The notes under the pieces are model-generated. The model was not told the origin of the DNA. It made no database searches and saw nothing but the letters and a program-made list of their open reading frames with translations. Positions 9,165 through 62,296 of a DNA stretch of 64,000 bases are shown here, one piece after another (the stretch's first letter is position 1; each line of letters opens with the position of its first letter). A program made the position numbers and the translations under genes. The DNA is from a virus. Lineage: Duplodnaviria > Heunggongvirae > Uroviricota > Caudoviricetes. The stretch lies in IMG/VR virus record IMGVR_UViG_2925891887_000001. The stretch is one strand, 5' to 3'.

Positions 9165-10739
9165 ATGGAATTGAACGACAAACAAATTAAGGATCTGGTG
9201 GCGCGACGCCACCCGGAATACGAAAAGAAAAAAGAACATTGGGACTTCCTCGCCAGCACTTACGCTGGCGGGCGTGGTTGGTTTACAGACAATATCTTTC
9301 GTTACTTTAAAGAGGGAGATCAGGAGTTTAAGGAGCGAGTTGAACGTGCTTATCGCTTCAACCACACTCGTGAGGTGGTAAACCTCATCAACAAATATCT
9401 CTTTAAAGAAGACATTCATAGAAATATCGAAGAGGCACCAGAGCAGATCCGCAATTTCTGGAAACGTGCGACTCGCCAGAATGCCTCTATTGACTCATTT
9501 ATGGCCGCTATTGATTTGCAGTCGTCTATTTACGGTCGCATATGGGTTGTTGTCGATAGCACGATGAGTGGTGATGTTGAGTCAGTAGCTGACGAGAAAA
9601 AGAAAGATGCTCGCGCCTACGCCTACTGGATTTCACCTCAGCAAATGCTGGATGTGGCATGGGACGACGACGGGAATATGTTGTGGGCGTTAATTGTGGA
9701 AGTCGCTCGTGATGACGCAGATCCTTTTACTTCTACAGGTCAGGAATACCAACGTTATCGTCTGTGGACACAAAACGAGTGGTATCTGTTCCGTGAGGAA
9801 GTGAAGAAGGGCGCTGGTGGAGCAGGTCGCCGTCAGGCAAAAGTTATTTTAGAGGATAGCGGTGAGCATAATCTCGGCGTAGTTCCTGTGTTTCCTGTTG
9901 ATTGTATTGGAGAAAGTGAATCACCGTATTTCAGCCCATCGTTGATCGATGATATCGCTTATCTTGATCGTGCGGTTGCAAACTATCTGTCAAACCTTGA
10001 TGCCATTATTCAGGATCAGACATTTAGCCAGTTGGCTATACCGGTACAGTCGCTTTTACCTGGTGATGAAAACCACACTAAAGTGCTTGAAATGGGCACA
10101 AAGCGAGTCTTCACCTACGATTCTGAAGGTGGAAACCAGCCGTTTTATCTGTCACCAGACCCGAAACAAGCTCAGATGATCATCACTACGATTAAGACGG
10201 TGATTAACGAAATCTACCATTCAGTTGGTGTAGCTGGTGAGCGAACGAAGCAGGACAACGCACAGGGAATCGATAATTCATCTGGTGCCGCAAAAATGTA
10301 TGACTTCCAGCGTGTAAATAGCTTGCTTGTCACAAAAGCAGAGCGTCTGGAAAGGGCTGAACGCCAAATCATGCTACTGGTTGCGAAATGGATGGGGGCA
10401 GATCTGGACGAAGACCACTCTTTAATTGCGTATCCAGAAAGTTTCGATATTCGTGGCCTTACTGATGAATTTTCTGTTGCCGAGAAACTGTCATTACTTC
10501 AGGCACCGGACTCTGTACGTCGTCACCAGATGGAAATGCTTATTGAGAAGATTTTCCCGAACATTACTGAGGCGATGAAAAAGGAATTTGATAAAGATCT
10601 CTTGAATTTTCCTCCAAAAAATGATCTAAATACCCTTGAAAATAAGTCAGTACTTACTTATGATCGTGGTGCAGCCCAAGAAAGCGGGCAAGATCAACCC
10701 CGAGGGAATGGGGACTCATCTACTCAAGAGAACGAGTGA
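9165..10739 (+). CDS. Portal protein
   Basis: 524-aa protein directly after terminase; size and position typical of portal. Confidence 0.7.
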   Translation: MELNDKQIKDLVARRHPEYEKKKEHWDFLASTYAGGRGWFTDNIFRYFKEGDQEFKERVERAYRFNHTREVVNLINKYLFKEDIHRNIEEAPEQIRNFWKRATRQNASIDSFMAAIDLQSSIYGRIWVVVDSTMSGDVESVADEKKKDARAYAYWISPQQMLDVAWDDDGNMLWALIVEVARDDADPFTSTGQEYQRYRLWTQNEWYLFREEVKKGAGGAGRRQAKVILEDSGEHNLGVVPVFPVDCIGESESPYFSPSLIDDIAYLDRAVANYLSNLDAIIQDQTFSQLAIPVQSLLPGDENHTKVLEMGTKRVFTYDSEGGNQPFYLSPDPKQAQMIITTIKTVINEIYHSVGVAGERTKQDNAQGIDNSSGAAKMYDFQRVNSLLVTKAERLERAERQIMLLVAKWMGADLDEDHSLIAYPESFDIRGLTDEFSVAEKLSLLQAPDSVRRHQMEMLIEKIFPNITEAMKKEFDKDLLNFPPKNDLNTLENKSVLTYDRGAAQESGQDQPRGNGDSSTQENE

Positions 10740-48148: not shown

Positions 48149-48619
48149 GTGAAAGCTGATTTGTCAAAAGTCCCTTCTATTTCAGGAAATAACGGTTATT
48201 CACTTCGTTGTGAGGAAGTAAAGATAAACGGTGAGTCGGCATATTGCAGCTACTCCGTTTGCCAGCACACCATTCTTGCCTTCAAAGAAAACCGTCTTCC
48301 TCGAACGTCTTTCCAGTCGTGCGCAACCGCTATTAAAGCAGGCAAATGCAAGGCGTTAAAAATGATGGTTGAAGAGATTCGTAAAGGAGAATCTCTGTAT
48401 TTCGAAGATATGACCGCACTCATTAAGGAGGTTGAAGAACGGAATAAACAAGCCAGAACTATAAAACGAAAACGTGACAGTGTAACGATTAATAGCATGG
48501 TTAAGAAGAGCGCCACATCACAAACAGCGATCACTGACGTGTATGCGGCGTTGATTGAAGAAACAACAAAAGAAACACATGAGCAAATCGATCAACATAT
48601 GGAGGCAAAACAACAATGA
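48149..48619 (+). CDS. Hypothetical Cys-rich protein
   Basis: 156 aa with N-terminal Cys cluster; coupled to ligase gene. Confidence 0.35.
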   Translation: MKADLSKVPSISGNNGYSLRCEEVKINGESAYCSYSVCQHTILAFKENRLPRTSFQSCATAIKAGKCKALKMMVEEIRKGESLYFEDMTALIKEVEERNKQARTIKRKRDSVTINSMVKKSATSQTAITDVYAALIEETTKETHEQIDQHMEAKQQ

Positions 48620-49938
48620 AAAAGTTGATCGCACTTAAGCATAAGCTGGACGAAATGAAAGCTATAGGAACCAATGCAAAAAAAGAGGCATTGGCCAACA
48701 TGGATGACTTTGAACAAAGCATGGTTTCATTGATGCTCAACCCTTTCATCCGTTTTGGGGTAAAGAAATACAAAGTGGCAGAGCCGCTTAGTGAGTCCAT
48801 CCCAAGTGACGTAAAAGCCATTGATGTACTGAATAAGCTGGCCTCTCGCGAGCTAACGGGGAACGCAGCAATAGCAGCTGTTGAGTCTATCGTGGCGTCA
48901 ATGTGCGCCGATGGGCAGGACGTGTTCCGTCGTTTCCTCTTAAAAGACCCGAAAGCAGGTGTTGGGATTAGCCTATGCAACAAGGTTTTTGAAAATCCCA
49001 TTCCGAAATTCGAGGTGCAGCTGGCGTCACCGTATAAAGAAAAAGGCGACAAATACCCCTTCAAGCCAAATCCTAAAGCAAAATGGCCGATGATTGGCAG
49101 TCTTAAGCTCGATGGTTTGCGAGTAATTTGCGAGGTTATTGTTGACGAGGAAGAGGTTAACTTCCTTTCTCGTACTGGTAATCCAATCACGTCTCTCGAT
49201 CACCTAAAGCCAGCAATGCTCGAATTAGGCAAACTTTCAGGCCACAAACACATCTTCTTCGATGGTGAAGGAACAGCCGGTTCATTTAACCAGTCCGTAT
49301 CTGCATTGCGCAAAAAGAACGTGCAGGCAATTGGCGCTATTTATCATGTTTTCGACTTCTTCCTACCGGAATGGCGAGCACAGGCTAAATCCAAAGAGTA
49401 TGCAAAGACAGGTATGAAGCTGAAAGAGCGCCTGGCTATTCTCGTGGCGTTGTTCAAAAACGATCGCAGTGAAGGCTACACACAAGACATTCACCTGCAT
49501 CCGTTCTATATCATCCATAGCCACGAAGACTTCATCGAACGCTTCATGAAACGCCTGGACGATAATGAAGAAGGGGAGATGGGCAAAGATCCGAACTCTG
49601 TTTACGAGTTTAAACGTACCCGCAGCTGGTGGAAGTTAAAAGACGAAGATTCAGAAGATGGTGAAATTATCGATTTTGAGCCGGGCGATCCGGACTCTGG
49701 TTTTGCCAACACGCTTGGAAAAATTGTTATTCGTCTTGAAAACGGCGTCATCGTTCGTGCGAGCGGTATTAAGCATAAATATCTGGACGAGATCTGGAAC
49801 AACAAAGAGAAGTACCGTGGTCGTATTGTTGAGGTTCATTGTCACGAGAAAACACCGGATGGCAGCTTACGCCACCCCCGACTGAAATGGCCGCGTTGCT
49901 TACGCGATACAGAAGATCGAATCGGAGATAAAGAATGA
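48616..49938 (+). CDS. ATP-dependent DNA ligase
   Basis: Motif I KLDGLR (adenylation lysine), motif III-like FFDGEG, motif V-like WWKLK; 440 aa. Confidence 0.75.
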   Translation: MKKLIALKHKLDEMKAIGTNAKKEALANMDDFEQSMVSLMLNPFIRFGVKKYKVAEPLSESIPSDVKAIDVLNKLASRELTGNAAIAAVESIVASMCADGQDVFRRFLLKDPKAGVGISLCNKVFENPIPKFEVQLASPYKEKGDKYPFKPNPKAKWPMIGSLKLDGLRVICEVIVDEEEVNFLSRTGNPITSLDHLKPAMLELGKLSGHKHIFFDGEGTAGSFNQSVSALRKKNVQAIGAIYHVFDFFLPEWRAQAKSKEYAKTGMKLKERLAILVALFKNDRSEGYTQDIHLHPFYIIHSHEDFIERFMKRLDDNEEGEMGKDPNSVYEFKRTRSWWKLKDEDSEDGEIIDFEPGDPDSGFANTLGKIVIRLENGVIVRASGIKHKYLDEIWNNKEKYRGRIVEVHCHEKTPDGSLRHPRLKWPRCLRDTEDRIGDKE

Positions 49939-50114
49939 TGCTCGGCTGGATGATTGCATTTTTAGCAGTTGGTTTTTTCATAGGTATTGTGGTGATGTCC
50001 AGTTGCATCAATGACTACATTAAAAGCGGTGTTATAGAAAGACGCGGTCGTATTTATCGCATTGTAGAAATAACCAACACCCTGAAGGAGATTAAGGATG
50101 ATCGTATTAAGTAA
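49935..50114 (+). CDS. Small membrane protein (59 aa), not in ORF track
   Basis: ATG overlaps ligase stop; one TM helix (LGWMIAFLAVGFFIGIVVM) then basic tail RRGRIYRIVEIT; paralogous to 50310-50462. Confidence 0.4.
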   Translation: MMLGWMIAFLAVGFFIGIVVMSSCINDYIKSGVIERRGRIYRIVEITNTLKEIKDDRIK

Positions 50115-50313
50115 ACGGGAGAAGGAAACGCTTCATGAAATCAGTAAGTGGCCGGAGTTCCCTGAGTACTGGAAGCCTAAAACGCGAGCTAAGTTAGAGC
50201 GTTTAGGGTTGGTTGCAAACGTTTCTGAAACGTGGTGTTCGGCCAACTACCAGTTAACTGATAAAGGGAAAGTATTGCTACAGCAATTAGTAGAATCAGG
50301 AGTGTTAAAATGA
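50098..50313 (+). CDS. Hypothetical small protein
   Basis: 71-aa ORF from track. Confidence 0.35.
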   Translation: MIVLSKREKETLHEISKWPEFPEYWKPKTRAKLERLGLVANVSETWCSANYQLTDKGKVLLQQLVESGVLK

Positions 50314-50462
50314 TTCCATACATCTCATTAGCTTTTATGGGTGGCTTCCTTATCGGCTTCGGCATCTGTCGTGATTTAGTTAAGCAGGAACTTAAAACCA
50401 AAACACTGTGCATCGGAAAGCGTGTGTATCGGGTAGTTCATGAAACAAAGGTGAAAAAATGA
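50310..50462 (+). CDS. Small membrane protein (50 aa), not in ORF track
   Basis: One TM helix (ISLAFMGGFLIGFGIC) then basic tail GKRVYRVVHET; same architecture as 49935-50114. Confidence 0.4.
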   Translation: MIPYISLAFMGGFLIGFGICRDLVKQELKTKTLCIGKRVYRVVHETKVKK

Positions 50463-50749
50463 GCAATTTAACTTCTTGGGAATGGTGGTTGGCCACCTAT
50501 TTCTTAGCGGCCGGAGTCGCATTCGCCTTTTACGTAGGTCAGTTAGTCGTAAAACTGTTGCTGATTAAATTTGCTAGTCATAAACGTATCGATGATGGTC
50601 TGTGGCGTCTTGGCGCCCTGGTGGAAACTCGCTACGGGCAACTTAAGGAGAACGAAACCATTACTATCCAAGCGAAACGATTCACTGCCACCATTACAAG
50701 AACACCTAGTCGTAGAGTGGCCTTGATCAAAAAAGTCACAACCGAATAA
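50459..50749 (+). CDS. Small membrane protein
   Basis: 96 aa with N-terminal TM (WWLATYFLAAGVAFAFYVGQLVV). Confidence 0.4.
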   Translation: MSNLTSWEWWLATYFLAAGVAFAFYVGQLVVKLLLIKFASHKRIDDGLWRLGALVETRYGQLKENETITIQAKRFTATITRTPSRRVALIKKVTTE

Positions 50750-51527
50750 AAACATATTGATAAGTATTTACTTACTTATCTTTTGTGTATAAGATGACTT
50801 TGTTTTCGTTGAGACGCGACTGTTTGAACTTAAATACAAGTGCAAACGAAGAAGTCTATCTGGCAGTAGCCTAATAAGCCAAACACCAGCGAGGTCAGTT
50901 TCCAGCCTCGTTACCGAAATGGGACACACTGAGCGAGTGTGATTGCAGAACGCAGGAGGGAACATTCATGTTCCCTCCGATGAAGTAACAGAATGGGCGG
51001 TTGGTATATTTTCAACTCCATATGACTCCCGGATTCTTAGCCACTGACCGCCCATCCTGTTACGTCATTTTGTTCAATTATGTCGTTTATACTGGGTTAA
51101 AAAGCGGCGACGTAGCCCGGCTGGTATGGTTAGCCAGCACACAACGTTGAGGCCATTACATTTTTATCAATTCTAAGGTTCTATTCACAGAGATACCGGC
51201 GAGCGTTGATATGTAACATGTTGGGCAAACATTCAATCGGAGTAGTGGCCTCAACGTTGTGAAGACGGGATTGTTGTGTAGGTTTAACCACTGTTGCCAT
51301 TGGTGCCTGTTTTCACAACAAATGATTCCATACATCACATTGTATAAATTACAAAGTAGGTGCTGTCCTCAGAAACATCATCTACTTAAAGATTTTGCCT
51401 TCTACTATTGAGCGAAGTCGAAAGCGTCTGGCACTAACGAAAAGTGCAAGTAGCGGTGCGTTTCCTGGCAGAAACTAAACCGTCGCGATTGGCACTGTTG
51501 AGTAATAAATACTGGCAGTGCTGAATT

Positions 51528-51607: not shown

Positions 51608-51694
51608 GGGGAGTTAGTCCGTAGAGGTAGCGGTGTAGACTGTAAATCTACTGTCATGGCGACTCGGGTGGTTCGACTCCATCACTCCCCACCA
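51608..51694 (+). tRNA. tRNA-Tyr (anticodon GTA), long variable arm
   Basis: Acceptor ggggagt/actcccc, anticodon loop ctGTAaa, long variable arm, T-loop ttcgact, encoded CCA; D-arm pairing weak. Confidence 0.7.
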
Positions 51695-52335: not shown

Positions 52336-52358
52336 AAAGGGGCTTCGGCCCCTTTTTT
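52336..52358. terminator. Bidirectional rho-independent terminator
   Basis: aaaggggc-ttcg-gcccctttttt; serves plus-strand tRNA cluster and minus-strand gene ending at 52374. Confidence 0.8.
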
Positions 52359-52373
52359 GTTGAACAGTGCAAT

Positions 52374-53636
52374 TTACTTTGCATAGTCGCCCAATTTTAA
52401 TATTTCGCGCTTATATTCATTAACCATGCTACTGGATTCAGTATAAATTCGATTTAAAAGATTATCGTTATCTTTATTTTCATTTATCTTAATTAGTGCT
52501 AATTTATATTCATAGTCATCAAATGCCACAATTAAATGGTGGCCTGGGATTATATCTTCGTCACTCTTAAAGTATATATCTTCAAGTATGTAATCTAGTT
52601 GATTAGATTTTCTTTTCTCGATGTAATCTTCAGCCATAGCTATTACATCATTCCTGTCATTTAACCTGTTTTTTTCGGAAGGCACATCTTCGTAATGTTG
52701 CACGATTGAACAACCAATAAGGCGTGGGATGTAAACGTCAAAATGAGTAACTCTATCATTCGCGGTTTTAAGTAGTTCCTCAAAGTAGTTTCTTACATGT
52801 AAAGGCAACTTCTCAAAGTAATCATTAATTATAGGAGAACAAGGAGTTTTATAATTCATAAGAACCGACGGTACGAGCTTTGGGTGTCGAAACATCCAGT
52901 CCCTTTTAACGTCCGATGGAACATAATAACTTTTAATGATATTATCAAAATAATTTATCATTCGAGATTTGAATATTTTGTTGAATCTAAGGTTTATGAA
53001 TGTATCCAGATAAGGCATATTTGAATAAGCATCATCAAAAAATATTTCATCATTGAAAAAATCATATTTATTCAATAAACAACACAGTTTTTCCGAATTA
53101 ATATGTTCACAATAATCGATTTTTAATCCAAAGATAGCAATGATCAACTTCATCTGAGGTGGGATTTTAAAAATTAATTGTGACACATACGCTCTTTTTT
53201 CCTTGAGACATTCCCCATCAATATAAAATGAACCATCCACATACTCAAATATATTAATAATATGCTTCACATACTGTATTACCTCATGCTGTCTTACCAA
53301 TGGATAATATAGTCTATGTAACTCATCGCTGTTTAAATTAATTTTGTGTTTATCGATAATTTGTTTTGCAAGAAGACATAACTCATCATGTTGATTTAAT
53401 AAGGAATCAAACCATTGTTTAAATGCACTCTTTCGCATTTCGAACAATGATTCAGTTGTTAATTGAAGGGCTGAAAAAGCTGCTTTTGCACTTTTTCTCG
53501 CTTCGTAGGCATTCCATGCTGTTGCTATAAAAGCAAATGCTGTAGCCAATGTTCCAACAGTTTGACCATTTAAAACAACCCAATCCCAAAAAATGACGGT
53601 GAGCAGTAGTATAATAATGAAAATTAAAAAAGGCAT
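52374..53636 (-). CDS. Hypothetical membrane protein, low-GC cargo gene
   Basis: 420 aa; N-terminal hydrophobic segments (FLIFIIILLLTVIFWDWVV; LATAFAFIATAW); strongly AT-rich; only minus-strand gene here. Confidence 0.5.
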   Translation of the reverse strand: MPFLIFIIILLLTVIFWDWVVLNGQTVGTLATAFAFIATAWNAYEARKSAKAAFSALQLTTESLFEMRKSAFKQWFDSLLNQHDELCLLAKQIIDKHKINLNSDELHRLYYPLVRQHEVIQYVKHIINIFEYVDGSFYIDGECLKEKRAYVSQLIFKIPPQMKLIIAIFGLKIDYCEHINSEKLCCLLNKYDFFNDEIFFDDAYSNMPYLDTFINLRFNKIFKSRMINYFDNIIKSYYVPSDVKRDWMFRHPKLVPSVLMNYKTPCSPIINDYFEKLPLHVRNYFEELLKTANDRVTHFDVYIPRLIGCSIVQHYEDVPSEKNRLNDRNDVIAMAEDYIEKRKSNQLDYILEDIYFKSDEDIIPGHHLIVAFDDYEYKLALIKINENKDNDNLLNRIYTESSSMVNEYKREILKLGDYAK

Positions 53637-54083: not shown

Positions 54084-54266
54084 ATTCCCACCAAACTCAC
54101 TCCCGTTTCCCTTAAAATTCAAAAAACAACGTCAAAATGATTCCATACCTACTATGTATGGAATCATTACTGAAAATGAGTTACTTTTACTCTTGATCCT
54201 ATAAGAATCTATGCCTAATATACTGTTTACTTATACAGTAAATCGGCGTAACTCGGTGATTGTCAT

Positions 54267-55370
54267 ATGAAAAATAGCTTTGACAGAGCACGCGCTGCGG
54301 AGAACACCTCAAAAGAGGCGATTGAGTATCTCGAAAGAGCATCTCAAATGCAGGCCGTTATGATCTCGCAGGTCAGCAATGACATGAGATTCTCGGACGC
54401 ATTCATGTTATTCACTCGCTTATCTCTGCTGATAACAAGACGTCGGCCAGAGATCGCTGTTCATTGTATTTTGATACATGTTTTGCCGCACATTGCCGAT
54501 GTAAAAGTAAGTGACATTAATAGGTTCATGGTGAACCAACTGGTCAACCCACTAATACTGGATGGCAAAATTGTTATGGGCCGCCGCGTTTTCTCTCTGA
54601 TGAAGCAGTTCCTTAGCTGGTGCGCCTTCCAGGGGATGATAGACGTGTCACCGTTAAACGATATGTCACTAAACAAAGTTGCCGGTGGCGCAAAGCCCAC
54701 ACCTCGCGAGCGGAAGCTGACCGACGCAGAGGTATGGGTGTTCTGGAATATATGGGACTACTTCAATGTGTGCGCTGGTACAAAATGGGCGGCCAGGCTG
54801 TGTCTTGTATCCGCAAGACGACCTGACGAAGTACTGCGGGCTAAAAAAAGTGAGTTCAATCTTAAGCGTGGGGTTTGGAATCAAGGCAAGAGGAACAAAT
54901 CTGCCCGTGAGCATTCGCTGCCTTTAAGCACATTAATGCGCACATGTATTGAAGAGTTGTTCGAATACGGTAAAGGCAGCCAGTGGCTCGTGCCTTCGAA
55001 TAAAAAAATCGGGAAAGACCTTCCTATGTCTAAAGTGGCAATAGCCCAGGCATTACGTCGTATCCTGGAACGACCAGAACTGATGGAGCTTGAGCCATTT
55101 ACACCCCGAGACTTGCGCCGTACTGCGCGTAGTTACTTCCCAGCATTAGGCATAAGCCAGGAGGTCTCACGCAAAATCATGAACCACAGTCTTGAGGGGA
55201 TAGATCGAGTCTACGACCGGCACGATTATATGGACGAGATGCGAGACGCCTTAGAAAGTTTCTCGACGTACATCGCATCAATCGTAGAGCAACCGGATTT
55301 AGACGAAATTGACCACAAATTCAAGGGAGATCGTCTATCAACAGAGCTTATTCGTGTAAATTTTTCATAG
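54267..55370 (+). CDS. Tyrosine recombinase / integrase family protein
   Basis: C-terminal catalytic region with conserved Arg (LVSARRPDEV), box II-like PRDLRRTARSY, then NHSLEGIDRVYDRHDY with candidate catalytic Tyr; 367 aa. Confidence 0.65.
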   Translation: MKNSFDRARAAENTSKEAIEYLERASQMQAVMISQVSNDMRFSDAFMLFTRLSLLITRRRPEIAVHCILIHVLPHIADVKVSDINRFMVNQLVNPLILDGKIVMGRRVFSLMKQFLSWCAFQGMIDVSPLNDMSLNKVAGGAKPTPRERKLTDAEVWVFWNIWDYFNVCAGTKWAARLCLVSARRPDEVLRAKKSEFNLKRGVWNQGKRNKSAREHSLPLSTLMRTCIEELFEYGKGSQWLVPSNKKIGKDLPMSKVAIAQALRRILERPELMELEPFTPRDLRRTARSYFPALGISQEVSRKIMNHSLEGIDRVYDRHDYMDEMRDALESFSTYIASIVEQPDLDEIDHKFKGDRLSTELIRVNFS

Positions 55371-55751
55371 AGACTTTATGGCCTCAACAACCTTTTGTGA
55401 TGCGCCTTTCTCTTTACCGAATCGCTCGTTATATGCAGCAAGAACCTGTTTTTCGTCCTCGTTAAGAGGAGCGGTGCCTTCTTTGTATAAAAATGCTGCG
55501 AGTTCAGGTTGGCGTTCTTCCAGCACCATCATCATAAGACGACTTGGCTCAATACCCAGCGCCAGCGCCAACGGACGAACCTTATCGATAGGCAAAGGAA
55601 TTTTGCCACTTTTAATTAAAGAAAGGTTGTTGGCATTTTTATAACCAATAAGTCTGGCTATTTGGGCCTGACTCATAGGTGAGGATTCAATCAGCCCTGC
55701 GATAAAAGCGGCATAGCGACTTTCTATAAATTCAATCTTGTTGTCAGACAT
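55365..55751 (-). CDS. XRE-family HTH transcriptional regulator (repressor-like)
   Basis: HTH segment SQAQIARLIGYKNANNLSLIKSG; 128 aa; divergent from 56002 ORF, with palindrome GGTAAGTGCTTACC about 32 bp upstream of its start. Confidence 0.65.
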   Translation of the reverse strand: MSDNKIEFIESRYAAFIAGLIESSPMSQAQIARLIGYKNANNLSLIKSGKIPLPIDKVRPLALALGIEPSRLMMMVLEERQPELAAFLYKEGTAPLNEDEKQVLAAYNERFGKEKGASQKVVEAIKSL

Positions 55752-59958: not shown

Positions 59959-62296
59959 CTTCTCACTTGGGGAGTCGGCTCTAAAAGCAGAAAACGCGGT
60001 GAAGATTGCCAGAGAAGCTGGCTACACCGCTGTAATTTCAGCAGATAGCATGAATATTGCGAGCGTTATTCCACTACAACGTGCCGCTGGTGACGACATG
60101 GCGGTTATTTGTGGTGTGAAACTAAACATTGTTGATGATCCCACATACGAGCACCGGGCTAAACTTGCTAAAGAATCTATGAGATGTATGGAATCATTAG
60201 AGCGAGGACGTAACTACTCGTTTACCGCTCTAATTAAAAATGAGAAAGGATATCGCGACATCTGCGAACTAATGACGGCGGCCAACACACGAGAACAGTT
60301 CTACTTTGTACCGCGTCTCTCGCTCGAACAGTTGGTTTCTACATATGCCAAAGGCAACATCATCCTGCTTACTTCCGACATCGGTAGCGTGTTCCAACGC
60401 AACGATTTTGCAAAAATCATAAGCACACTGATTACAGCGGGTGGAAAAGACAACTTCTATAGTGTGGTTTATCCGCACCCTACCCCATTCTACGACCAGA
60501 TTAACGTCCGGGCGATGAAAGTCGCCAGCGCATTGAAAATAGAGCCAGTGGCGTTCTATCCCGCTTATTACGAATCGATCGACGATGCAGACATTAAAGA
60601 CATTGCGCACATGGTTACGAACAACATCAAAATCGACCAGCCGCATCGTCTGCGTATCCCCCACCAGCGAGATAACGCCGTCAATGGTCGCCGCCATCTC
60701 CTTGAGGCGCTTAAAGCCTTCTCCGTTCGCATGGATGTGCCGGTAACAGCTGCAATGGCCTCAACAACGCAGGATACCATTATCGATGCCTGCACATGGC
60801 GCTGGCATGAATTGCCGCCAGCACTGCCAAAGATGGCAGACGACGAGCCTGCAACGCTGATGAAACTGGCTGTTGCAGGGCTGCGTAAACGTCTTACCAC
60901 AAAAGAGTTTGGCTACACACCACCTGCTTCTGAGAACAGGGTTTATGTTGAGCGGCTAAAGTACGAAATGGACACGCTGACTCGCCTGGGATTCTGTGGT
61001 TACTTCCTGATGGTGCGCGATCTGATGAATCATAGTCGTGAAACTGGCATTCCCGTTGGGCCTGGTCGTGGTTCCTCTGCCGGTTCTCTGGTGGCGTGGT
61101 GCATAGGCATAACCAACGTCGACCCAATCCGTCACGGTCTTCTGTTTGAGCGTTTCATCAACCCTGAGCGTCTCGACTTGCCGGATGCGGACTTGGACTT
61201 CAGCCAGGCACGTCGCCATGAGGTGATCGAGTATCTGAATGAACGCTACGGCGAAGATTACGTTGCAGGCATTCCGAACTTCACCTACCTGGGCGCAGCC
61301 TCTGCACTACGTGATACCGCTCGTATTTATGGTGTGGAGTCCGCAGATATGGCGGTATCAAAAGAGCTGAAGAACGTCGAGGATGATAGCCTTCCATTGG
61401 AGGAGCTGCGCGAACAACTGGCAAGTCTCGACAAATACGCAACAAAATATCCTGATGCATTCAATGCAGCCTGCAAGTTACAAAGCCTTATGCGTGGCTT
61501 TGGTAGACATGCGGCAGGGATGATCGTAGCAGGTGTTCCTCTGACAGAACGTACACCGGTTGAACGCCGTGGTGACGCGCGTTGTATCGCATTTGACAAG
61601 CGTTACTGCGAGGCTATGGGCCTAATTAAGCTGGACGTGCTTGGCCTGGCAACTCTCGATTTGCTCGATAGTGCAAAACGCTACATAAAAGAGAACACAG
61701 GTGAAGATATCAATCTTGATGCCATTTCTCTTGAAGATCGCAAGGTGCTGGATGGTTTTGCTGCAGGGTATACACAGGGCGTATTCCAGCTTGAATCAGG
61801 CCCAATGCGCAAGCTGCTTAAAGATTTAGGTGGTGGAATTGAGCCAATGAGCTTTAAAACGGTCGTCGCTACAACTGCGCTCTTCCGACCTGGCCCGATT
61901 CAATCCGGCATGTTGGACGATTATGTGTCCGTGGCCAAAGGCTTCATGGCCCCACATTCCTTACACCCAATGCTGGACGACATCTCTCGCGACACAAACG
62001 GAGTTCTGATTTATCAGGAACAGATCATGGCTGCTACGCGAATCTTGGCGGGGTTCTCAATGGCGGAAGCAGACTCGGTCAGGAAAGCGATCGGGAAAAA
62101 AGATATGGAGAAAATGAAATCCATTGGCGGCGACTTCATTAAGCGAGCGGAGGAAGGCTGGGTGACAGTGTCACTGGATGATGGTTCTACGAGAAAAATC
62201 CATAAAGCAGCACGCCTACTTTGTGCTGATGGTGAGCGTCGCACTTATGCCGAAGCAATGGCAATAAATGCCGACATAACGAGCTTCGATATTTGA
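59933..62296 (+). CDS. dnaE: DNA polymerase III alpha (DnaE-type), N-terminal segment ending at interruption
   Basis: Degenerate PHP-like N-terminus, palm motifs GPGRGSSAGSLVAWCIGIT and PDADLDF, FRPGP fingers motif; about 43 codons before the stop stop resembling DnaE. Confidence 0.85.
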   Translation: MKALMVRTDFSLGESALKAENAVKIAREAGYTAVISADSMNIASVIPLQRAAGDDMAVICGVKLNIVDDPTYEHRAKLAKESMRCMESLERGRNYSFTALIKNEKGYRDICELMTAANTREQFYFVPRLSLEQLVSTYAKGNIILLTSDIGSVFQRNDFAKIISTLITAGGKDNFYSVVYPHPTPFYDQINVRAMKVASALKIEPVAFYPAYYESIDDADIKDIAHMVTNNIKIDQPHRLRIPHQRDNAVNGRRHLLEALKAFSVRMDVPVTAAMASTTQDTIIDACTWRWHELPPALPKMADDEPATLMKLAVAGLRKRLTTKEFGYTPPASENRVYVERLKYEMDTLTRLGFCGYFLMVRDLMNHSRETGIPVGPGRGSSAGSLVAWCIGITNVDPIRHGLLFERFINPERLDLPDADLDFSQARRHEVIEYLNERYGEDYVAGIPNFTYLGAASALRDTARIYGVESADMAVSKELKNVEDDSLPLEELREQLASLDKYATKYPDAFNAACKLQSLMRGFGRHAAGMIVAGVPLTERTPVERRGDARCIAFDKRYCEAMGLIKLDVLGLATLDLLDSAKRYIKENTGEDINLDAISLEDRKVLDGFAAGYTQGVFQLESGPMRKLLKDLGGGIEPMSFKTVVATTALFRPGPIQSGMLDDYVSVAKGFMAPHSLHPMLDDISRDTNGVLIYQEQIMAATRILAGFSMAEADSVRKAIGKKDMEKMKSIGGDFIKRAEEGWVTVSLDDGSTRKIHKAARLLCADGERRTYAEAMAINADITSFDI

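Follow-up and report, generated by a model that had tools for sequence, protein, structure and literature searches.

A conserved cluster of small predicted membrane proteins behind the ligase gene of SSU5-like phage-plasmids

The question addressed here is what is encoded by four small open reading frames (ORFs) directly behind a DNA ligase gene, and what their products might do. The ORFs lie at positions 49935-50749 of a stretch of 64,000 nucleotides (nt) from the IMG/VR virus record IMGVR_UViG_2925891887_000001 (Caudoviricetes), which is called the window in the following. Judged by nucleotide comparison, the window is an SSU5-like phage-plasmid: over positions 48600-51000, its identity is 99% with Escherichia phage Cyrano (pLF82), 79% with Salmonella phage SSU5 and ~73% with Klebsiella relatives. 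In a distant-mode search, the 1-kb cluster region was matched in 790 PLSDB plasmids, with Klebsiella, Escherichia, Enterobacter, Salmonella, Yersinia pestis (plasmid pMT1) and others as hosts. A sequence-only reading of the same DNA had described the ORFs as a cluster of small single-pass membrane proteins. They very probably constitute an accessory cluster at the distal end of the lytic replication operon, in which a pair of small bitopic inner-membrane proteins is coupled after the ligase.

The ATP-dependent DNA ligase gene (48616..49938, plus strand, 440 amino acids (aa) in the ORF list) is preceded by helicase, primase and two hypothetical genes. It is labeled DNA ligase in Cyrano, SSU5, pMT1 and others, and PF01068 is on record for its homologues. 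Its stop is joined by an ATGA overlap to the start of ORF1 (49935..50114, 59 aa), which overlaps ORF2 (50098..50313, 71 aa) by 17 nt; ORF2 and ORF3 (50310..50462, 50 aa) as well as ORF3 and ORF4 (50459..50749, 96 aa) again overlap as ATGA, all of them on the plus strand. A Shine-Dalgarno match is present 4-9 nt 5' of all four starts (GGAG for ORF1, AGGAG for ORF3), with duplex energies of -6.6 to -8.8 kcal/mol, and the conserved start of ORF1 is probably the second ATG at 49938. These overlaps and ribosome-binding sites bear out the translational coupling after the ligase that the sequence-only reading had proposed, and the coordinates and lengths which it gave for the four ORFs agree with the ORF list and the sequence.

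ORF1, ORF3 and ORF4 each contain a single N-terminal hydrophobic segment, with Kyte-Doolittle peaks (19-residue mean) of 2.55, 1.84 and 2.00, respectively, and are predicted to be bitopic membrane proteins. In ORF1, the transmembrane (TM) segment spans residues ~7-25 with the motif G13xxxG17, and the tail carries RGRIYRIVEIT. ORF3 starts with MIPYI, has G12xxxG16 within its TM segment and carries GKRVYRVVHET in its tail, whereas ORF4 combines a TM segment at ~18-36, containing G19xxxA23xxxG27, with a cytoplasmic helix and a predicted beta-hairpin of the strands TITIQ and TATIT. None of the three has a lysine or arginine before the TM segment, and four are found among the 15 residues behind it. 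The predicted topology is N-out/C-in, and the net charge of the tails amounts to +3 for ORF1 and +7 for both ORF3 and ORF4. ORF2, on the contrary, is a soluble and basic protein without a TM segment, so that the description as single-pass membrane proteins holds for three of the four ORFs.

That all four are real genes under strong purifying selection is indicated by comparison with seven orthologous loci (SSU5, pMT1, Salmonella and Klebsiella elements). The pairwise ratio of nonsynonymous to synonymous substitution rates (dN/dS, Nei-Gojobori) is 0.05-0.16 for ORF1, 0.17-0.22 for ORF3 and 0.06-0.10 for ORF4; for ORF2, the proportion of nonsynonymous differences (pN) is 0.19-0.32 versus 0.74-0.92 for synonymous ones (pS). 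Synonymous sites are close to saturation, with a pS of 0.5-0.9 over the four ORFs and ~0.5 in ORF3, and the lengths, frames, overlaps and Shine-Dalgarno sites are kept across genera. An exception is the ORF3 of one Salmonella plasmid (L006), in which RRD interrupts the TM segment, GxxxG is missing and dN/dS reaches 0.56. This plasmid also has a frameshift in the tag frame of the adjoining RNA described below, and looks like a decaying element.

All four genes are already catalogued as hypothetical proteins. Each ORF matches a PHROG family of unknown function over the whole protein and the whole profile (ORF1, phrog_4381, E 1.1e-39; ORF2, phrog_4054, E 1.7e-45; ORF3, phrog_6302, E 1.4e-36; ORF4, phrog_4507, E 3.2e-58). 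The annotation of SSU5 includes them as SSU5_045-048, and RefSeq lists them in pMT1 (WP_002224360, WP_002224361, WP_002225462 and WP_002224363) and in Klebsiella, gene order and lengths being the same in SSU5 and Y. pestis pMT1. The Cyrano annotation leaves out ORF1 only and names ORF2-4 CYRAN_37-39, ORF3 being CYRAN_38. ORF1 and ORF3 had been noticed as missing from the ORF track, probably because, with 59 and 50 aa, they fall under the usual minimum of 60 aa; they are annotated in SSU5 and RefSeq. Some records misname ORF4 homologues 'C-type natriuretic protein', a label without support in any profile library searched.

ORF1 and ORF3 had been suspected to share one design, and their relationship can be followed beyond the shared motif. 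BLASTP aligns the two with E 5e-5, and a profile-profile comparison (hhalign, eight orthologues per profile) gives a probability of 94% and E 1.3e-7 over 47 columns, end to end. In the joint alignment both glycines of the TM GxxxG as well as R, Y, R and T of the tail motif are invariant, and two database proteins, P0075 (MMIPYI...RRRVYRVVEIT) and P0085, bridge the two types. By these alignments, ORF1 and ORF3 are true paralogues. The motif given by the sequence-only reading, G-[KR]-R-[IV]-Y-R-[IV]-V-[EH]-[IE]-T, has a real core, [GK]-R-[IV]-Y-R-[IV]-V-[EH]-x-T, but is shifted by one residue relative to ORF1, whose sequence here is R-G-R-I-Y-R-I-V-E-I-T.

For this work, the family was defined by an N-terminal TM segment with GxxxG, a linker of ~12-15 residues and R-[VIL]-Y-[RK]-[VIL]-[VIL], encoded right after the ligase or after ORF2. 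These features are present in both window proteins and in all 17 intact relatives; GxxxG occurs in 17/17 intact members and is missing only in the degenerate copy of L006. The paralogue family that the sequence-only reading proposed to look for in relatives was indeed found, conserved across genera: an exhaustive hidden Markov model search of 1.8 billion representative proteins yielded 22 clusters at E<=1e-3 which, where the context is readable, belong to SSU5-like elements or short metagenomic contigs. PHROGs splits this one family in two (phrog_4381 and phrog_6302). ORF4, which has a similar K-R-aromatic hairpin, was considered as a third, elongated paralogue and rejected, because hhalign gave probabilities of 0.2% against the ORF1 and 1.6% against the ORF3 profile and aligned TM residues only. 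The ORF1 homologue of Salmonella plasmids occurs also in S. Typhi, where one protein (P0030) carries an in-frame duplication of R-I-Y within the conserved tail motif, RGRIYRIYRIVDIT.

The arrangement in relatives separates a constant from a variable part of the cluster. More divergent elements (104-110 kb) have just one family member, of 55 aa, behind the ligase and next to it an 84- or 96-aa ORF4 homologue, with overlapping genes; in L014, L017 and L018, the ORF4 homologue lies directly 3' of the sole ORF3-type gene, and ORF2 and the second paralogue are absent. Among PLSDB records, tblastn detected ORF1 in 531, ORF3 in 681 and ORF4 in 652. Genus by genus, the counts of ORF3 and ORF4 agree (Escherichia 217/217, Yersinia 43/43). 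ORF1, in contrast, was detected in 138 Escherichia records only, and ~79 E. coli records are without it. Among natural variants, L003 shows a clean deletion of ORF1 at an ATGAT microhomology, by which the ligase is now coupled to ORF2, a 57-nt repeat-mediated deletion takes out the ORF1 TM segment in L010, and L011 has lost the ligase through ORF2 and retained ORF3 and ORF4. Further, a 138-aa gene stands in place of the ORF3 tail and ORF4 jointly in L009 and L010, and ORF3 is truncated by a transposon in L013.

Since divergent architectures, PLSDB counts and natural variants agree, the ORF3-type protein and ORF4 are regarded as the constant unit and ORF1 as expendable. Comparison at this level shows that the conserved core, which follows the ligase immediately, consists of one ORF3-type protein and ORF4, and that ORF1 is a duplicate copy that has been lost repeatedly. 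In the clade of SSU5, pMT1, Klebsiella and E. coli, the ORF3-type gene was duplicated, yielding ORF1, with ORF2 between the copies. As for its place, the cluster is shown to be an accessory one, located in SSU5-like phage-plasmids at the distal end of their lytic replication operon.

The expression of the cluster appears to follow that of the operon. No sigma-70-like promoter site was found on either strand between 48500 and 52500 in a consensus scan, which is weak evidence, and the first strong terminator lies at 52336-52355, 3' of a group of tRNA genes. For LF82 lysogens, a transcriptome has been published as log2(FPKM+5) (FPKM, fragments per kilobase per million), in which 2.32 equals zero (PMC9928086, Table S1). 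In overnight lysogeny broth (LB) cultures, the values of the two replicates were 2.45 / 2.66 for CYRAN_36 (ligase), 2.97 / 2.32 for CYRAN_37 (ORF2), 2.32 / 2.32 for CYRAN_38 (ORF3) and 2.83 / 3.0 for CYRAN_39 (ORF4), compared to 7.15 / 7.32 for CYRAN_40, a gene encoded opposite to the tRNA genes and overlapping them. CYRAN_37-39 are also not on the authors' list of genes above prophage background (PMC9928086). Since lysogens show values at zero or close to it for ORF2-4, as for the ligase, the expression of ORF2-4 is considered lytic-type: the cluster behaves like lytic replication genes, unlike a moron expressed in lysogeny.

ORF2 stands apart from its neighbors also in its similarities. Its sub-threshold matches all fall on residues ~33-66, including Y-x-LT-x-KG, namely HTH_45 (E 0.18), the C-terminus of Csa3 (E 0.0015), SSO5209 (E 0.013) and PA1607 (E 1.5). 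The matched segment corresponds to the wing-like part of winged-helix proteins, and ORF2 is probably a small protein of this type.

What the membrane proteins do is more difficult to answer. Searches of ORF1, ORF3 and ORF4 against Pfam, NCBIfam, PADLOC and PDB sequences gave no significant match, the defence models of PADLOC were not matched even at E<=1, and no homology to known toxin, holin, exclusion or defence families was found in Pfam, PHROG, PADLOC, NCBIfam and PDB searches. The AlphaFold2 monomer of ORF1 is a single long helix, with a predicted local distance difference test score (pLDDT) of 80-89 in the TM segment and ~60 in the tail, and that of ORF4 consists of a helix (6-61) and a hairpin (67-71/76-80) with a pLDDT of 75-88 in the TM segment and <65 beyond. 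GxxxG and related small-xxx-small patterns are classical helix-packing motifs, and G19xxxA23xxxG27 is invariant in the alignment of the main ORF4 clade. Because the GxxxG and the cytoplasmic tail motif are the most conserved parts, specific protein contacts are favored over generic membrane damage.

These features would fit a hetero-oligomer in the inner membrane. Here, the proteins would be made only while the replication operon is on, i.e., during lytic growth, and would insert N-out/C-in. Through their glycine-motif TM helices, ORF3 and ORF4 would pack into a hetero-oligomer that ORF1 could join as an additional subunit, and the conserved basic tails on the cytoplasmic side would bind a specific partner. 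The outcome would be a non-essential modulation of the host envelope or of a membrane-proximal process, which would raise the phage yield. As a mechanism, such a non-essential, lytic-cycle hetero-oligomer with basic cytoplasmic tails is possible and for the present doubtful; cluster identity and hetero-oligomer mechanism together form the best explanation of the locus as a whole, one that is held tentatively. The target of the proteins is fixed neither by homology nor by structure, and any function assigned to them is a guess.

Several observations weigh against this explanation. The N-out/C-in topology is based solely on the positive-inside rule, and AlphaFold2 is confident in the TM helices only, the tail motif region being a helix in the ORF1 model and a hairpin in that of ORF4. 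A database protein, P0074, reads as an in-frame ORF3-ORF4 fusion, which would not fit both partners being N-out. The 'plasmids' of PLSDB may often be defective prophages, and their natural deletions indicate dispensability only weakly. With respect to expression, the lytic timing was deduced from the silence of the genes in lysogens and not from a time course after induction. In other LF82 conditions ORF2-4 reach ~4-6 (PMC9928086), and a weak internal promoter is possible, since they read slightly above the ligase in some of these.

Among the alternatives, the one that survives best is a membrane tether for phage DNA replication, in which the basic tails, perhaps together with ORF2, would hold DNA or the replisome at the membrane. 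The small early membrane proteins p16.7 and p1 of phage phi29, replication organizers with an N-terminal TM segment and a cytoplasmic tail, provide the model. Like them, the ORFs with an N-terminal TM segment belong to an early or replication operon, in which they are the last cistrons after helicase, primase and ligase and translationally coupled to the latter. The tails of ORF3 and ORF4 are strongly basic, a probable DNA-binding winged-helix protein lies inside the cluster, and the layout of ORF4, a TM segment, a long helix and a small C-terminal element, recalls the design of p16.7. However, neither Pfam nor PDB searches revealed sequence or profile similarity to the phi29 proteins, to DNA-binding domains or to solved structures, a dimeric coiled coil with a C-terminal DNA-binding domain, as in p16.7, is not recognizable in tails of just 25-60 residues, and host and phage type differ. 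In addition, ORF2 is missing in lineages that retain the core pair, and many elements have lost the cluster or carry other genes in its place. A tether is regarded as unlikely.

The products might also exclude superinfecting phages or block the injection of their DNA while the element replicates. T4 Imm, T4 Sp, HK97 gp15 and P22 SieA are membrane proteins of superinfection exclusion, the T4 pair being made early in lytic infection. The likeness consists in small inner-membrane phage proteins made early; duplication, loss and replacement would fit the turnover of an arms race, and the cluster adjoins a variable cargo region, with an extra tRNA-Tyr and a 420-aa ORF compared to Cyrano. On the contrary, the periplasmic part would comprise only 0-17 uncharged residues, and by the positive-inside rule the conserved motif is cytoplasmic. 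Silence in lysogens would leave the carrier state unprotected, selection is purifying, not diversifying, and neither PHROGs, Pfam nor PADLOC contains an exclusion family that is matched. Lytic-phase exclusion is considered rather improbable.

The sequence-only reading had pointed to host-takeover or toxin-like factors, and this part is not established: neither toxicity nor a host target is shown by anything at the locus. Self-contained small membrane toxins, similar to type I toxins (Hok, TisB, Ldr, Ibs) or to holins and antiholins, would depolarize or permeabilize the membrane. Size and the single hydrophobic N-terminal helix fit such proteins, silence in lysogens would suit a toxic product, and a weak match to the holin family phrog_2359 exists (E 0.063). 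This match is insignificant and spans only the TM residues 8-34 of ORF4, and selection focuses on the soluble tail motif, not on hydrophobicity, which together with GxxxG points to a specific assembly. The consensus scan revealed neither an own nor an antisense promoter, the genes are co-translated with an enzyme gene of essential type, and in Cyrano the lysis cassette of holin, endolysin and spanins (CYRAN_22-25) is located ~10 kb 5' of CYRAN_37-39. Because promoter and antisense signals are missing and the lysis cassette is far away, a toxin- or holin-like role is the least likely of the three functions considered so far, and a very unlikely one.

The surroundings of the cluster contain two further elements. 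The first lies directly 3' of ORF4, within ~780 nt without annotated genes that precede tRNA-Asn, -Tyr, -Thr and -Ser. Here, conservation and covariation reveal an unannotated structured RNA of ~350 nt (50800-51160, plus strand). Its mean column identity over nine lineages is 84%, above that of the flanking genes, and it is retained where adjoining genes are replaced. Of the 92 pairs in the consensus fold, 15 show compensatory changes; 97.8% of the cells are paired versus 36-46% in slid controls, and 0/500 shuffles reach the observed values.

Within this RNA, the frame at 50843-50875 (plus strand; GCA AAC GAA GAA GTC TAT CTG GCA GTA GCC TAA) reads ANEEVYLAVA followed by a stop. It has no start codon and resembles the tag of the transfer-messenger RNA (tmRNA) SsrA of E. 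coli, which is ANDENYALAA. Other lineages read ANEDTYLAVA, ANEDAYLAVA, ANDNQYLAVA, ANDTQYLAVA and ANDDVVLMAA, and a copy in a lambdoid prophage, between the Q gene and the holin, reads ANEEMYLAVA. Six of these seven variants end in YLAVA, and in these the last five codons differ synonymously only; a shared start codon is ruled out by upstream indels. The frame has thus the properties expected of a tmRNA tag frame, being start-less, conserved as a peptide and hydrophobic and rich in alanine at its C-terminus.

A canonical tmRNA was nevertheless rejected. ARAGORN made no tmRNA call, and incoherent ones under relaxed settings, a match to chromosomal ssrA was not found, and Rfam scores of the window copy are sub-threshold, with only the tag region aligned (beta_tmRNA 14-17 bits, gathering score 84; tmRNA_permuted 14 bits, gathering score 47). 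Its tRNA-like domain is non-canonical, with a 2-nt bulge in the terminal helix, U:G instead of G:U and no G3:U70; the loop of the hairpin at the T position is AUGGUUA, and CCA is present in 5/8 lineages. The copy of L012 reaches 39 bits (E 2.4e-6) on tmRNA_permuted (RF04321, gathering score 47) and has a canonical T-arm (E 7.6e-5), and a canonical T-loop is found in L024 too. Taken together, the RNA may be a divergent phage tmRNA or a tmRNA mimic. RefSeq carries no annotation at its site in ~250 E. coli plasmids, the paper on the tmRNA database, in which the word 'plasmid' does not occur, counts 79 phage tmRNAs, and our literature search found no paper linking tmRNA with SSU5, pHCM2 or pMT1, nor one treating the small proteins described here.

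The 3' end of the RNA shows two additional features. A 20-bp inverted repeat (51140-51159, CACAACGTTGAGGCCATTAC; 51243-51262, GTAGTGGCCTCAACGTTGTG) could allow the 3' strand of the terminal helix to pair with a downstream segment instead and may serve in processing or as a switch; in the lambdoid copy, a T-arm is enclosed by a comparable alternative stem. Further, the 33 nt at 51128-51160 match an annotated CRISPR sequence in the E. coli chromosome NZ_LR778147.1 by 100%; this chromosomal sequence looks like a spacer taken up against elements of this group.

The second element is a 15-mer, ATGATTCCATACATC, which at 50310..50324 (plus strand) covers exactly the start codon and codons 2-5 of ORF3. 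Further copies are located ahead of the tRNAs at 51322-51336 (plus strand), at 54137-54167, where two form an inverted pair, and at 60183-60197 (minus strand) inside the gene of the DNA polymerase III alpha subunit (dnaE). These are 5 copies in the window versus 0.12 expected, and the whole 108-kb genome of Cyrano also has 5, all within 9.2 kb. The inverted pair, ATGATTCCATAC-CTACTAT-GTATGGAATCAT, consists of 12-bp arms and a 7-bp spacer and lies ~100 nt 5' of a tyrosine recombinase gene (54267-55370; PF00589, E 7e-10), and the 15-mer at the ORF3 start is identical to one arm of this palindrome. A near-perfect LexA box, TACTGTTTACTTATACAGTA, is present at ~54222-54241 (plus strand), ~25 nt 5' of the recombinase gene, and fits the reported ciprofloxacin induction of Cyrano (PMC9928086). 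A helix-turn-helix protein is encoded nearby at 55365-55751 (minus strand).

Copies of the 15-mer are conserved in distant relatives including SSU5, and the four synonymous positions in codons 2-5 of ORF3 are invariant in 10/11 lineages. The exception, L012, retains I-P-Y via synonymous changes, and the motif is absent there. Because of these invariant positions, the conservation of MIPYI is ascribed partly to the DNA or RNA level. Recombination of a Shufflon/Rci-like kind at the isolated copies was rejected, since the junctions of an inversion (ORF3 copy with dnaE copy) and of a deletion (ORF3 copy with the copy upstream of the tRNAs) are each absent in ~190 close relatives. A dependence of the isolated copies on the adjoining recombinase was likewise rejected, as SSU5 lacks recombinase and palindrome yet retains copies, and ORF2 is unlikely to be the binding protein, as L014 and L017 carry the 15-mer without ORF2. 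The absence of the predicted inversion and deletion products makes a regulatory site likelier than an active recombination site, and the most economical idea is that the 15-mer would be a dispersed site bound by a protein. The mono- and bivalent C1 operators of phage P1 are a comparable case.

Where they can be placed in phage-plasmid lineages, ORF3, ORF4 and the RNA lie between two direct copies of the 15-mer, one at the ORF3 start and one before the tRNAs. They could be imagined as one cassette in which the membrane proteins, together with a non-canonical tmRNA encoded by the phage, redirect ribosome rescue or protein tagging in lytic growth, with the 15-mer as the site of a regulator or recombinase by which the cassette is controlled or mobilized, an idea to which hardly any probability is given. 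The proposal that the ORFs, and ORF3 in particular, are not functional proteins and owe their conservation to overlapping DNA or RNA signals can practically be dismissed, for although a nucleotide-level element does cover the first five codons of ORF3, it accounts for only 15/153 nt, the remainder shows the dN/dS and pS given above, L012 keeps the protein by synonymous changes without the motif, and frames, lengths and Shine-Dalgarno sites persist across genera.

Beyond these elements, the spot beside the tRNAs is a variable cargo site. Compared to Cyrano, the window has an extra tRNA-Tyr (51608-51694) and an extra AT-rich ORF of 420 aa (52374-53636, minus strand) with an N-terminal hydrophobic segment and without a Pfam match, where Cyrano carries CYRAN_41 and CYRAN_43. 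The corresponding position in Y. pestis pMT1 is where the caf1 (F1 capsule) locus starts. In L014, a divergent phage-plasmid of ~110 kb, ARAGORN reports a tRNA with the anticodon CUA, labeled tRNA-Pyl, at 9810-9885, within the counterpart of the tmRNA-like RNA and the tRNA block; this tRNA may be an amber-suppressor-type tRNA.

In kind, the cluster is ordinary: conserved, catalogued and uncharacterized small membrane proteins in a phage early operon, a type of operon in which hypothetical proteins of this sort occur often. The present analysis refines this picture by the core of an ORF3-type protein and ORF4, the expendable ORF1, the signature of the paralogues, the winged-helix-like ORF2 and the lytic-type expression.

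Little is known about the biology of SSU5-like phage-plasmids, which occur commonly in clinical Enterobacterales. With the cluster soundly annotated, a misleading product name is removed, and functional work on small proteins gains a concrete target. The larger value lies in the surroundings, namely in a 15-mer that resembles a recombinase site and constrains the start of ORF3, and in an unannotated RNA with a tmRNA-type tag frame. If this RNA is functional, widespread enterobacterial phage-plasmids and at least one lambdoid prophage would carry their own trans-translation-like RNA.

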